A stretch of 64,000 nt of DNA from Bryobacterales bacterium (GCA_963703295.1 OY969810.1:1232001-1296000); one strand, 5' to 3'. Shown: positions 24,005 to 45,924, counted from the stretch's first letter. Notes: generated from the letters alone by a model not told the origin. Numbers and translations: made by a program.

Positions 24005-25234
24005 ATGAACATCACAAGGCGAAGCCTGCTTTCCACTCTGCCCCTGCTCTCGGCGGCAAGCTTTTTGCGGGCCCAACCGCAAGGGGCGCAACAAACAACT
24101 GGATCGACCCAGACCACGGCCCCACCAGCTGACGGGAAGCCTCAGGCAGCTTTCTCTACCGACGTAAAGCTGGTGAACGTCTACGTAACGGTACGCGACA
24201 AGAAGGGCGCGATTGTCACCAATCTGAATCAGGCCGATTTCGCGCTTAGCGAAGACGAGCATCCGCAAGTAATCAAATATTTCTCGCGCGAGAGCAATCT
24301 GCCTCTCTCATTGGGCATGCTGGTGGATACCAGCGGCAGTCAGCGCAACGTGCTCGACAGCGAACGCACGGCCAGCATGCAATTTTTGCGGCAGGTGATG
24401 CGCCCAGACCGCGATCTGGCGTTCGTGATCCACTTCGATACCGAAATCGAGTTATTACAGGATTTAACTGCGGACAAGGTCAAATTGGCCAAAGCCATCG
24501 AGCTATGCGCACCCAGCGCCAGGCCGCAATTCCAGCAGCAGGGCGGGCAGCAGGGAGGCCAGTCTCCCAATGGCGGTGGCTACCCGAATGGTGGCGGCTA
24601 CCCGAATGGTGGCGGTTACCCCAACGGCGGAGGCTATCCGAACGGGGGCCAGCGGCGTGGCGGCGGCGGACAAATGGGTACGGCGCTCTATGACTCCATC
24701 TATCTTGCCTGCGACGAAGTAATCAAAAAGCAGCAGGGACGGAAAGCGCTGATTTTGCTGACGGATGGCGTGGACCATGGGAGCAAATATACGCTCTCGA
24801 TGGCGGTTGAGTCGGCGCAGCGCGCGGATACCATGGTCTATTCCGTGCTGTTCTCGGATCCTCACGGCAATGGGAATGGTCCGGTCGGTTTCGGCCCGCC
24901 GATGGGCCGGCGCCGCATGGGCTATCCCGGCGGTGGTTATCCCGGTGGAGGCGGGTACCCGGGGGGCGGCGGCAATGGCGGAGGAGCTAACGGCAAGAAG
25001 GTTTTGCAACAAATAGCCGACGAGACCGGCGGCCGCTTTTTCGAGGTTTCGAAGAAATTGCCGCTCGACAAGGTGTACGACGAGATCGAAGAGGAACTTC
25101 GCAGCCAGTACAGCATCGGATATACCTCGGATACTTCGCCTGAGACGGGAAGAATGTACCGCAAAATCGCCGTGACCGTGCCGAAGCAGAAGACCTATGT
25201 GGTGCGGGCTCGCGAAGGGTATTACGCCAGTTGA
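24005..25234 (+). CDS. VWA-domain secreted protein (Acidobacterial VWFA-related type) with Gly/Tyr/Pro-rich inserts
   Basis: Signal peptide (MNITRRSLLSTLPLLSAASFLRAQ). VWA MIDAS-type motif (LVDTSGS) and ALILLTDGVDHGS. Two low-complexity GGGYP tracts. Confidence 0.85.
   Translation: MNITRRSLLSTLPLLSAASFLRAQPQGAQQTTGSTQTTAPPADGKPQAAFSTDVKLVNVYVTVRDKKGAIVTNLNQADFALSEDEHPQVIKYFSRESNLPLSLGMLVDTSGSQRNVLDSERTASMQFLRQVMRPDRDLAFVIHFDTEIELLQDLTADKVKLAKAIELCAPSARPQFQQQGGQQGGQSPNGGGYPNGGGYPNGGGYPNGGGYPNGGQRRGGGGQMGTALYDSIYLACDEVIKKQQGRKALILLTDGVDHGSKYTLSMAVESAQRADTMVYSVLFSDPHGNGNGPVGFGPPMGRRRMGYPGGGYPGGGGYPGGGGNGGGANGKKVLQQIADETGGRFFEVSKKLPLDKVYDEIEEELRSQYSIGYTSDTSPETGRMYRKIAVTVPKQKTYVVRAREGYYAS
24569..24649 (+). 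repeat. Coding tandem repeat: four 18-bp units plus a partial one, encoding (NGGGYP)4
   Basis: The units are aatggcggtggctacccg / aatggtggcggctacccg / aatggtggcggttacccc / aacggcggaggctatccg, followed by aacggggg. They differ mainly at synonymous positions. Confidence 0.85.
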
Positions 25235-25265: not shown

Positions 25266-25601
25266 GTGCTGCATCTCTACCTCAAGCCAACTTGAACCAC
25301 CTGCCGCAAAGCGAAGAGTTTGCTTCGCGAAAAAGGCGTTGCGTTCGAAGAGATCGACCTCAACAAGAAGCTCTCAGTTGCCCAACTCGACAGCTTGATC
25401 GGCCCGCGCGATTACAAAATGTTTCTAAATTCGCGCAATGAGCTATATCGAGAGCGCGCGATGAAAGATAATCCGCCACCGCGCGCGGAAGCTTTGCGTC
25501 TGATGGCGGAGCATCCGAATCTGATCAAGAGGCCGATTTTCGTGCGTGGGGACAAGATCGTTCTTGGCTTCGACGAGTCAGCAATCCACGGGTTGATTTG
25601 A
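25266..25601 (+). CDS. ArsC/Spx-family thiol oxidoreductase-like protein with an in-frame UGA (25293-25295) at the first Cys of the CxxC motif; candidate selenoprotein (or nonsense pseudogene)
   Basis: Reading through the TGA gives (V/M)LHLYLKPT-U-TTCRKAKSLLREKGVAFEEIDLNKKLS...LIKRPIFVRGDKIVLGF. This is the canonical ArsC/Spx N-terminus (Y..P.C.TCRKA) with TGA where the first Cys sits. The ORF track only reports the part from 25320. Start codon (GTG 25266) is uncertain. Confidence 0.6.
25311..25328 (+). other. Candidate bacterial SECIS-like hairpin
   Basis: Stem GCGAAG (25311-25316), loop AGUUUG, stem CUUCGC (25323-25328). It starts 15 nt after the UGA and has a G/U-containing apical loop. 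The stem is only 6 bp. Confidence 0.35.
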
Positions 25602-25622: not shown

Positions 25623-28076
25623 CTACCGCAGCGTCCCCTCGGTTTCTCTTAGCCAATCGGGCCGCTTCAAAACATCGCGCGGCTTGCTGCCATCGGGCGG
25701 CCCGATGATTCCGTCGCGCTGCATCATGTCGAGAATGCGCGCGGCGCGGCCGTATCCCAGCCGCAGGTGGCGTTGTAACGTGGAGGTGGAAGCTTTCCCC
25801 ATCTGCAGCACCAAACGCACCGCCTCTTCGTACATCGGGTCCTGATCTTCGTTGGCGGGTTCGTCGGCTGAACCTGACTCCTCGTCGCTGGGCGGCGCGA
25901 TCAGATAGGATTGGTCGTACTCGGGCTTAGCCTGGTTCTTCCAGAAATCCACCACGCGGCCGATCTCGGTTTCGGTGACGAATGCGCCGTGCACGCGCGT
26001 GAGGCGCGAGGAGCCGGGTGGCAGAAACAACATGTCGCCCTTGCCCAACAGGTGTTCGGCGCCCATCACGTCGAGAATGGTGCGGGAATCGACGCGCGTT
26101 GCCACGCGGAAGCTGATACGGGCGGGGAAGTTCGCTTTGATCAGCCCGGTAATTACGTCGACGCTGGGGCGCTGCGTCGCCAACACCAGGTGCATGCCGA
26201 CGGCGCGGGCCATCTGCGCCAGGCGCGTGACGCTCTCTTCCACGTTCTTGCCTTCGAGCATCATCAGGTCGGCCAATTCGTCGATCAGAATCAAAATATA
26301 AGGCAGGGGTTTGGGATCTTCCTGTGTCTCCTCGCCCTCCGGGAAGAGATTGCGGGGTTCCTCCTGCAATTTCTGAATCTTCTTGTTGAACTGCTCGATG
26401 TTCCGCACGCCGGCTTCGGCCAGCAGACGCAGACGCCGCTCCATCTCCAGCACGGCATTGCGCAGTGCGTTGGTGGCCTTCTTGGGATCGACAATCACGG
26501 GCGTGAGCAGGTGCGGAATGTTCTCGTACATGCCGAGCTCGACGCGCTTGGGGTCCACCATGATGAAGCGGACATCGTCGGGCGTCGCTTTATACAGAAT
26601 CGACATAATCATCGAATTGATCATGACGCTCTTACCCGATCCGGTTGAGCCTGCGATCAACAAATGCGGCATGGCATCCAGCGCGGCCACGCGGATGCGG
26701 CCGTTGATATCTTTGCCTAGCGCGATGGTCAAATGGGAACGCGACTGGTTGAACTCGTCCGATTCGAGCATCTGCCGCAGCGAAATCAGTTCGCGCTTGG
26801 TGTTCGGAACCTCGATGCCCACAGTTGGCTTGCCCGGAATGCGCTCGATGAGAATCGATTCGGCCTGCAGCCCCAAACACAGATCTTCCATGAGATTCGT
26901 GATCCGGCTGTATTTGATGCCGGCTTCGGGTTTGAACTCGAATGTCGTGACCACCGGGCCAGGGTTGATCTGCGTCACGTTGCCGAGTACATTGAACTCT
27001 TCGAACTTAGATTTAATGCGCACGGCTACATCTTTGAGTTCCTGTTCGTCGTAGGCGCTCCGGCCCGGCGCCAGGTTGAGCAGTTCCGTGGGCGGCATCG
27101 CGAACATCAGGGGCTTACGCTCGGCAGGCACGGGCGCCAGGTGATGTTCGGGAACCAATGCCGGCAAAGGATCTGGCGGAAGATCTTCAATGGGACAGAT
27201 TGGGATTTCGTGGATGGAAGCGTATTCAGACGCTTCTGGCGTATCCGCGGCGGTTGCTGTGCCGGTCTCATGCGCCGTCTCCCACGGAGGCGTGTCGGGG
27301 CCGGCTACCGTTTGATTCACCGCGGCTGCTTTACCGCGGACGCGGCGCGTCTCCGATTTGACTAAGCGAGCCTCCACCTTAGCGGCTGCTTTAGCTTCCA
27401 ACTCCGCTGTTTTTGAGGCAGCGGCTTCGGCCTTGGCGTGACGCTTGGCCTCGCGCGCTTTCGCCTGCTCAAGCGATCTCAGTTGCAGGCGTTCGCGCCA
27501 GGCATAGAAGGCCTCCCGACGCCGCTCGATGAAGGCCAATGGACGCGCGAACCAAACTGCCAGCTTGGCAATGGTGAAGGTGGACACCAGGTAAACGGAA
27601 ATGATCACCGCGGTGGCGGTGAACAGAATGGCGCCGGCAAGGTTGAGCGAATCCACCAGATAACCAGCCAGCGCATAACCGAGCGTGCCGCCGATGCGAA
27701 TGTTGCCGCTGAAAAGGCGCAGGGGTACGAACGAAAACGCCGCGCAGGCGCTCAAGATCAGCGTCAACGTGCCACCGAGCTTAATCGCTCCGGCTTCGAT
27801 CTCTTCCGAGCGGATCCATCGCCACGCCAGCAGGAATGTCAGTAGCGGGAATAGAAATGCCGCGGCGCCGAAGACCTGCAGAAACAAGTCGGAAAGATAG
27901 GCGCCGGGATAGCCTATCAGGTTGAGGGGTCGCGTGGAGGATGCGGTATCCCAGGACGGGTCCTGAGTATGGTACGAGATAAGGCTCAAGAGCAACACCA
28001 GGCCCCCTGCAAGCAGCAGGAACCCGGCGGCTTCATTTAGCCTTTTGTGAGGCGTCGGAGATAGTAGCTTCATCAC
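25623..28076 (-). CDS. ftsK: DNA translocase FtsK/SpoIIIE
   Basis: N-terminal TM helices, a linker, a Walker A motor ([12 protein letters not shown]) with the DELADL Walker B, and a C-terminal gamma winged-helix domain ([24 protein letters not shown]). Confidence 0.95.
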
Positions 28077-45848: not shown

Positions 45849-45924
45849 GGCCAGGTAGCTCAGCTGGTAGAGCGCAGCCCTGAAAAGGCTGGCGTCGGCG
45901 GTTCGATTCCGTCCCTGGCCACCA
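45849..45924 (+). tRNA. tRNA-Phe: tRNA-Phe (anticodon GAA), CCA encoded
   Basis: GGCCAGGTAGCTCAGCTGGTAGAGCGCAGCCCTGAAAAGGCTGGCGTCGGCGGTTCGATTCCGTCCCTGGCCACCA. It has a 7-bp acceptor stem, the anticodon loop CUGAAAA, and a T-loop GGTTCGATTCC. Confidence 0.95.

Follow-up and report, generated by a model that had tools for sequence, protein, structure and literature searches.

Selenocysteine in the ArsC/Spx superfamily and an acidobacterial candidate

Selenoproteins of the ArsC/Spx fold that carry selenocysteine (Sec, U) in a U-x-x-C motif were predicted in surveys of 2006 and 2008 and form an accepted predicted class (PMC1794560, PMC2398784), as the original prediction for the gene described here had correctly stated. 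The "ArsC-like" selenoproteins of the earlier survey came from Desulfuromonas and Desulfotalea (PMC1794560), and the GOS class "Arsenate reductase 2 (UxxC)" comprised 42 Sec sequences alongside 238 Cys homologues (Zhang & Gladyshev 2008, PMC2398784). This GOS class is heterogeneous, mixing sequences of the NF041106 type with sequences of the Spx/TIGR01617 type. The catalogue in a 2026 review (PMC13188914) lists for the ArsC/Spx fold only TIGR00014 (UxxS) and NF041106 (UxxC), and because that review maps the GOS class to NF041106 only, UxxC selenoproteins of the Spx type seem to be no longer represented in the current catalogue. For the Acidobacteria, the 2006 survey reported only three selenoprotein families (PMC1794560).

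We analysed a 64-kb stretch of DNA (64,000 nucleotides, the whole of which is called the window) assigned to a Bryobacterales bacterium. We put at about 0.88 the probability that positions 25266-25601 encode an ArsC/Spx superfamily protein with a thioredoxin fold and 111 residues, of which residue 10 is selenocysteine. The features on which this reading is built, and the basis for each, are as follows.

25266-25601, plus strand: full predicted selenoprotein coding sequence (translation; Pfam ArsC match, E = 3.8e-17; codon conservation upstream of the internal TGA)
25293-25295, plus strand: UGA predicted to be read as selenocysteine, residue 10, the attacking residue of U-x-x-C (TGA in 71 of 80 relatives and in the window)
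25302-25304, plus strand: TGC for Cys13, the predicted resolving residue of U-x-x-C (Cys in all 71 Sec-type and all 9 Cys-type sequences)
25311-25328, plus strand: predicted SECIS apical hairpin GCGAAG-AGUUUG-CUUCGC, codons 16-21 (Ala-Lys-Ser-Leu-Leu-Arg) (pairing and third-position constraint)
25317-25320, plus strand: loop nucleotides AGUU, with the presumed SelB contact G/U at +26/+27 (invariant in 71/71)
25292-25348, plus strand: possible extended lower SECIS stem, 25292-25305 with 25335-25348, enclosing the UGA (minimum free energy (MFE) fold; unproven)
25599-25601, plus strand: true stop codon, also TGA (ORF list and translation)
25320-25601, plus strand: 93-aa ORF of gene callers and databases, a truncation artefact in our reading (TTG start in 37/71 orthologues)

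Just as the original prediction had described, 25320..25601 (93 aa, TTG start) is all that the ORF list reports here, and the same frame upstream reads VLHLYLKPT*TTCRKAKSLL (the asterisk being the stop) from the GTG at 25266. Followed from this GTG, the frame runs V/M-LHLYLKPT-TGA-TTCRKAKSLLREKG... and is open to the TGA at 25599-25601, with the TGA at 25293-25295 as its sole internal stop. GTG start, internal TGA and second TGA stop together delimit 111 codons plus stop, and the product reads MLHLYLKPT-U-TTCRKAKSLL...HGLI. The choice of start codon is supported by two related loci (L001 and L002) that have ATG aligned to the GTG of the window. With the TGA at 25293 read as Sec and the TGA at 25599 as stop, the same codon would have two meanings within one 336-nt gene. 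A genome-wide reassignment of UGA was excluded, because TGA is the ordinary stop of 10 of the 30 long ORFs in the window, this gene included. When the window was scanned for other TGA-split ORFs with U/C motifs, the result was noisy, with 80 candidates mostly in non-coding frames, of which only the one at 25293 was convincing. The gene converges with an FtsK-family gene on the minus strand (25623-28076), with 21 nt between the two stop codons.

Fold and relation to the curated subfamilies

With Cys substituted for U, the 111-aa protein matched Pfam ArsC PF03960 at 62.8 bits (gathering threshold 24; E = 3.8e-17), which bears out the ArsC/Spx family assignment originally made from the sequence alone, and it also matched the glutaredoxin N-terminus in Pfam. 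The best sequence match in the PDB was Bacillus subtilis Spx (E = 2.5e-12). In these alignments U10 falls on Cys10 of Spx and Cys12 of ArsC, and C13 falls on Cys13 of Spx, such that the single stop coincides with the first of the two CxxC cysteines, where the original prediction had placed it. An AlphaFold model of P0005, a Cys homologue 75% identical to the window protein, had a pLDDT of 96.3, and its top Foldseek matches were Spx, ArsC and YffB with TM scores of 0.74-0.87, the Spx structure 1z3e scoring 0.87.

Spx, an RNA polymerase-binding regulator with a CxxC redox switch (PDB 1Z3E, 7F75), is thus the best match in sequence as well as in fold. The likeness extends to the context of the motif at residues 10-13, which is SPSCTSCRKA in Spx and KPTUTTCRKA in the window protein, where U10 and C13 occupy the place of the Spx CxxC switch. 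The window protein differs from Spx in having Sec for Cys10, in its shorter chain of 111 against 131 residues, which lacks the C-terminal tail, and in its origin from Acidobacteriota rather than Firmicutes. The position of Spx Gly52, a residue that we take to be critical for the contact with the α-CTD, is also missing, as it lies within an alignment gap of two residues. The glutaredoxin-coupled ArsC of R773 (PDB 1I9D; TIGR00014) has the same fold, with its Cys12 on U10 and an equivalent of its Arg94 (R89, in NLIKRPI) clearly present in the window protein. However, the motif is UxxC rather than the CxxS of ArsC or the UxxS of its selenoprotein form, and of the Arg60/Arg94/Arg107 triad that accompanies Cys12 in ArsC only the Arg94 equivalent is clearly there; BLAST puts Arg60 on Asn55, and extension of the alignment would place the Phe of LGFDE at the Arg107 position.

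The curated models gave the same picture. Against TIGR01617 (Spx/MgsR) the window protein scored 67.2 bits, below the cut-off of 75.05 that P0005 just exceeds with 76.3; against TIGR00014 (ArsC) it scored 47.7 (cut-off 106.05), and against NF041106 ("ArsC family (seleno)protein") 29.7 (cut-off 85), a model on which the positive controls, a Desulfuromonas protein and a GOS read, reached 132 and 116 bits. The NF041106 family (ArsC_rel_Se_1, from Desulfuromonas and Desulfotalea) resembles the window protein in its length of about 110 aa, in belonging to the ArsC superfamily and in being a predicted selenoprotein with a UxxC motif, of the G-U-T-S-C type. The Desulfuromonas protein is nevertheless only 22% identical to the window protein and belongs to a different subfamily.

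A kinship in kind is also found in the GOS class "Arsenate reductase 2 (UxxC)", which likewise has the ArsC/Spx fold with Sec first in a U-x-x-C near the N-terminus. One of its marine reads has the identical UTTCRKA motif, and another scores best on TIGR01617 (70.6 bits), as does the window protein. Yet the Spx-type marine read that we compared is only 23% identical to the window protein, the class consists of marine metagenome reads whereas the window clade is one of soil Acidobacteria, and the balance of the two amino acids is reversed, Cys outnumbering Sec 238 to 42 in the GOS class and Sec outnumbering Cys 71 to 9 in the family of the window (80 genomes). The motifs NLIKRP and RNELYRE were absent from the supplementary sequence sets of 2006 and 2008, and UTTCRK occurred there in distant marine reads only. 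Judged by its sequence, the protein is predicted to work like a UxxC thioredoxin-fold selenoprotein of the ArsC/Spx superfamily and is a member of none of the three curated subfamilies. The acidobacterial clade in which Sec dominates matches no curated selenoprotein model, the NCBIfam models among them, although selenoproteins of this kind have been known since 2006-2008, and the selenoproteome of soil Acidobacteria would gain with it a family in which Sec is the prevailing state.

Conservation of the UGA codon and of the hairpin behind it

A genome scan with one genome per GTDB species yielded 438 related loci, of which the best 80 were analysed. All but one of these 80 are from MAGs labelled Bryobacterales, Bryobacteraceae, Solibacteraceae, Terriglobia or Acidobacteria (Acidobacteriota), in keeping with the acidobacterial origin that the original prediction had presumed. 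The exception in label, L023 (CAWGSC010000003.1), is named as an uncultured Nitrospiraceae and holds a Sec-type gene with 70% identity to that of the window; mis-binning, an error in the taxonomic label or horizontal transfer could each account for it.

The codon aligned with 25293-25295 is TGA in 71 of the 80 relatives (L068 counted) and TGT or TGC in the other nine, and two further contigs identical to the window also carry the TGA. The original prediction had named relatives that all have TGC or TGT here, with no conserved hairpin, as the outcome that would speak against it, and the alignment shows the opposite. Codon statistics were computed on 71 TGA-type sequences, namely 70 genomes and the window, with L068 set aside. 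In all 71 the stretch before the TGA has the same Tyr(-5), Lys(-3) and Pro(-2), while their synonymous codons are free (TAC/TAT 36/35 for Tyr, AAA/AAG 36/35 for Lys); the nine codons before the TGA are thus conserved at the level of the protein. Downstream, the frame is intact in every TGA-type sequence except L068.

These observations bear directly on the possibility that the TGA is a nonsense mutation, or an error of sequencing or assembly, and that the gene is dead or mis-read in the genome of the window. One change from TGC or TGT to TGA would suffice for this, and among the 71 TGA-type genomes there is a sole case, L068 719-811 (JAIQFJ010000419.1), with an extra in-frame TAG 30 codons past the TGA, for which a pseudogene or faulty assembly is the probable explanation. 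Against such an origin of the TGA in the window, the same codon recurs in about 70 species-level genomes that were assembled independently, as well as in the two identical contigs, it is flanked on both sides by a frame that is intact and under purifying selection, and it is followed by a hairpin that is conserved together with it. Because of this recurrence between constrained frames we consider a mutation or error to be excluded for practical purposes, and the nonsense alternative raised in the original prediction falls away.

A second possibility is that the TGA is the true stop of a tiny upstream ORF and that the real product is the 93-aa protein starting at the TTG at 25320. Gene callers report this product in dozens of assemblies, and in a protein search the commoner public relatives, with 92-98 aa and 72-92% identity, all start at (M/L)LREKG.... 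The TTG, which is codon 19 of the long frame, is nonetheless present in just 37 of 71 orthologues, with TGG in 18, TTC in 11 and other codons in the rest. By the P0005 model, the short protein would also be left without strand β1 and without the start of the CxxC helix, that is, without the redox motif of the thioredoxin fold. Neither the protein-level conservation of the nine codons before the TGA nor the full length of the Cys-type homologues (110-112 aa) fits a product that begins behind it. The full-length public homologues found in the protein search have 110-114 aa and 62-77% identity and read ...YLKP(T/N)C(T/S)(T/S)CRKA..., with Cys at the position of Sec, as in ...YLKPTCTTCRKA... and ...KPTCTTCRKA.... 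We therefore regard the 93-aa product as very improbable and prefer, with high probability as far as comparative sequence data can tell, a genuine selenoprotein gene that public annotation has truncated. The annotation error would then be systematic, dozens of database entries being N-terminally truncated "arsenate reductase" fragments of 93 aa that lack the active site.

To place the Cys forms, we consider the neighbor-joining tree of 80 sequences (the window and 79 related genomes, without L068), on which Sec is the majority state and the nine Cys forms are scattered among the Sec forms; the protein is short and the resolution of the tree is low. The Cys-type gene of L003 4352-4417 (JASIAM010000209.1), with TGT at the codon, stands next to the group of the window, L001 and L002, and two other Cys-type genes, L005 and L018, are nested elsewhere. 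In L003 the hairpin is near-intact (GCAAAGAGAUUGCUUCGC), but its loop is AGAU instead of AGUU. Its nesting by the window/L001/L002 group and the retention of most of the hairpin suggest that L003 may be a recent switch from Sec to Cys in which the SECIS is starting to decay. The scattered Cys forms, L003 with most of its hairpin among them, would provide a clean natural series on the exchange of Sec and Cys.

Bacterial SECIS elements are stem-loops located 16-37 nt 3' of the UGA, with a conserved G/U in the apical loop. The hairpin of the window, made of GCGAAG (25311-16), AGTTTG (25317-22) and CTTCGC (25323-28), has a 6-bp stem and begins 15 nt past the TGA, as originally described, and is present in the MFE fold; it spans +19 to +36 and its loop G/U is at +26/+27 (U of UGA = 1), so that 25311-25328 is a stem-loop at short distance with G/U in the apical loop. 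The SECIS of Escherichia coli fdhF, for which the sequence used in the comparison matched fdhF of 5,419 E. coli genomes at 100%, is likewise a hairpin within the coding sequence just past the UGA, with G-U in its apical loop (G23/U24), at a distance comparable to that in the window. It differs in that the window hairpin starts 15 nt past the UGA with G/U at +26/+27, has the loop AGUUUG, and in its commonest form has no bulged U. In the single-sequence fold the window hairpin gave z = -1.76, and 14 of 200 shuffles folded equally well; since the hairpin is by itself statistically unremarkable, the case for it rests on the comparative data.

Across the 71 sequences, 96% of the cells of the fixed-register helix are paired, a share that drops to 21-59% on shifting the partner strand by 1-3 columns, and the loop AGUU occupies columns 31-34 without variation. 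The third positions of codons +6 to +11 (GCG AAG AGT TKG CTT CGC) carry 1.58, 1.81, 2.00, 1.03, 1.23 and 1.89 bits of information, compared with about 0.3-1.0 bit over most of the gene elsewhere in TGA-type sequences. Among the codons frozen in this way are Ser+8 (AGT in 71/71), Ala (GCG in 66/71), Arg (CGC in 68/71) and Leu+10 (CTT in 61/71); at Ser+8 only AGT is used of the six Ser codons possible, and elsewhere in the gene Leu is mostly encoded by CTC or CTG. Across the nine Cys-type genes, information at the hairpin positions amounts to only 0.25-1.0 bit, and the encoded amino acids vary too. The synonymous freezing is therefore limited to codons +6 to +11 and to genes of the TGA type, a restriction that lends support to the selenoprotein with U-x-x-C and SECIS hairpin as first proposed.

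Folding of each distinct sequence gave five stem variants, GCGAAG/CUUCGC, GCGCGG/CUGCGC, GCGAGG/CCUC-CGC, GCCAGG/CCUG-CGC and GCAAGA/UCUUGC, each with AGUU in its loop and with energies from -5.3 to -11.9 kcal/mol. Most Cys-type genes have lost the hairpin; their folds are of another shape or weak, the weakest at -1.4 kcal/mol. Covariation is thin, with a double change in 2 of 6 pairs in fixed register, and RNAalifold retains just 4 pairs (-0.89 kcal/mol); a stem that hardly varies leaves little room for strict covariation. Both strands of 975 kb (about 2 Mb in all) were searched for a composite signature that combines an in-frame TGA, a spacer of 9-26 nt, a stem of 6 bp or more capped by an AGUU loop and an open frame on either side. 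Of the 65 matches, 64 belong to this gene family and one lies elsewhere. This compact and conserved acidobacterial element, a stem with an AGUU loop, could seed searches for selenoproteins in these genomes. An extended lower stem enclosing the UGA is part of the MFE fold of the window; we do not claim it, as it is 75% paired across species and its covariation in the across-species alignment was not above that of shuffles. As a whole, the gene has a UGA aligned with the Cys of its homologues and kept across species, with coding conservation on both sides.

Selenocysteine decoding in the lineage and the predicted role of the protein

In the 64-kb window, ARAGORN, Rfam and motif scans for SelD, SelA and SelB found no selA, selB, selD or tRNA-Sec, and no sel gene or tRNA-Sec was found with ARAGORN and the same motif scans in the 975 kb of the 82 related loci. 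A tRNA-Phe (GAA) at 45849-45924 on the plus strand is the sole tRNA and the sole Rfam match in the window. Evidence for the pathway comes from the lineage. The supplement of Zhang et al. 2006 holds SelA and SelB sequences of Solibacter usitatus (PMC1794560), a species for which two FdhA selenoproteins with U in NQAR(I/V)UH are also given (PMC1794560). With S. usitatus SelA as the query, the best 120 of at least 8000 matches are 71-100% identical to it, and those at 71-90% include entries for L-seryl-tRNA(Sec) selenium transferase from Bryobacteraceae and Acidobacteriia MAGs. None of these best 120 matches lies on the 8.76-Mb (8,764,536-bp) contig of the window, and among the matches listed no contig is common to the SelA and the ArsC-like searches. 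At the level of the lineage, the SelA, SelB and FdhA sequences give good support to predicted Sec decoding.

They also bear on a third possibility, that the UGA is recoded to a residue other than Sec, either to Cys through SelB and a tRNA(Cys) resembling tRNA(Sec), or by read-through with a near-cognate or suppressor tRNA. Some anaerobes have selC* tRNA(Cys) species that mimic tRNA(Sec), and unusual allo-tRNAs of Acidobacteria are possible nonsense suppressors (Mukai et al., PMC5389517); the selC* genes came, however, from Firmicutes, Thermodesulfobacteria, Nitrospirae and Proteobacteria, with no case in Acidobacteria (PMC5389517). The lineage has SelA, the Sec synthase, and with a third of the genes in the window terminating at TGA, general suppression of this codon is improbable. 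Repeated switching between TGA and TGT/TGC is the usual pattern of Sec/Cys pairs, and the switches seen among these genes fit it. We accordingly give recoding to another residue a slim chance and retain selenocysteine as the preferred reading of the codon.

By the established bacterial Sec pathway, a ribosome at the UGA at 25293-25295 would encounter the hairpin at 25311-25328 bound at its apical loop by SelB-GTP-Sec-tRNA(Sec), and Sec would be inserted where translation would otherwise end. No such element accompanies the second TGA, at 25599, which would act as the stop. In the resulting protein U10-T-T-C13 would lie at the start of helix 1, at the site occupied in Spx by the redox switch and in ArsC by the catalytic Cys, and the product would most likely cycle between selenol/thiol and selenenylsulfide, as other UxxC thioredoxin-fold selenoproteins do. 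By analogy with these, its biochemical role is most likely that of a small thiol-disulfide oxidoreductase or redox sensor. That the protein might be a putative functional counterpart of Spx, a redox sensor binding RNA polymerase in which a selenenylsulfide switch replaces the disulfide, we consider unlikely. If true, it would be the first selenocysteine-containing transcription regulator, and the strong preference for Sec over Cys in a large clade of soil Acidobacteria, many of which are probably aerobic, would point to selection for a faster or lower-potential switch.

The gene neighbourhood is not conserved, the upstream genes being common to just 3-4 loci and FtsK and BacA standing beside the ArsC-like gene in none of the related loci; it therefore gives no clue to function. 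Directly upstream in the window is an ORF of 409 aa (24005-25234, plus strand) with a twin-arginine-like N-terminus (MNITRRSLLSTLPLL...) and an apparent core of the vWA type. It has no Pfam match on record and contains low-complexity runs of GGGYPN (four times) and GGYPGGG, and it is kept beside the ArsC-like gene in only 3 of the 80 related loci.
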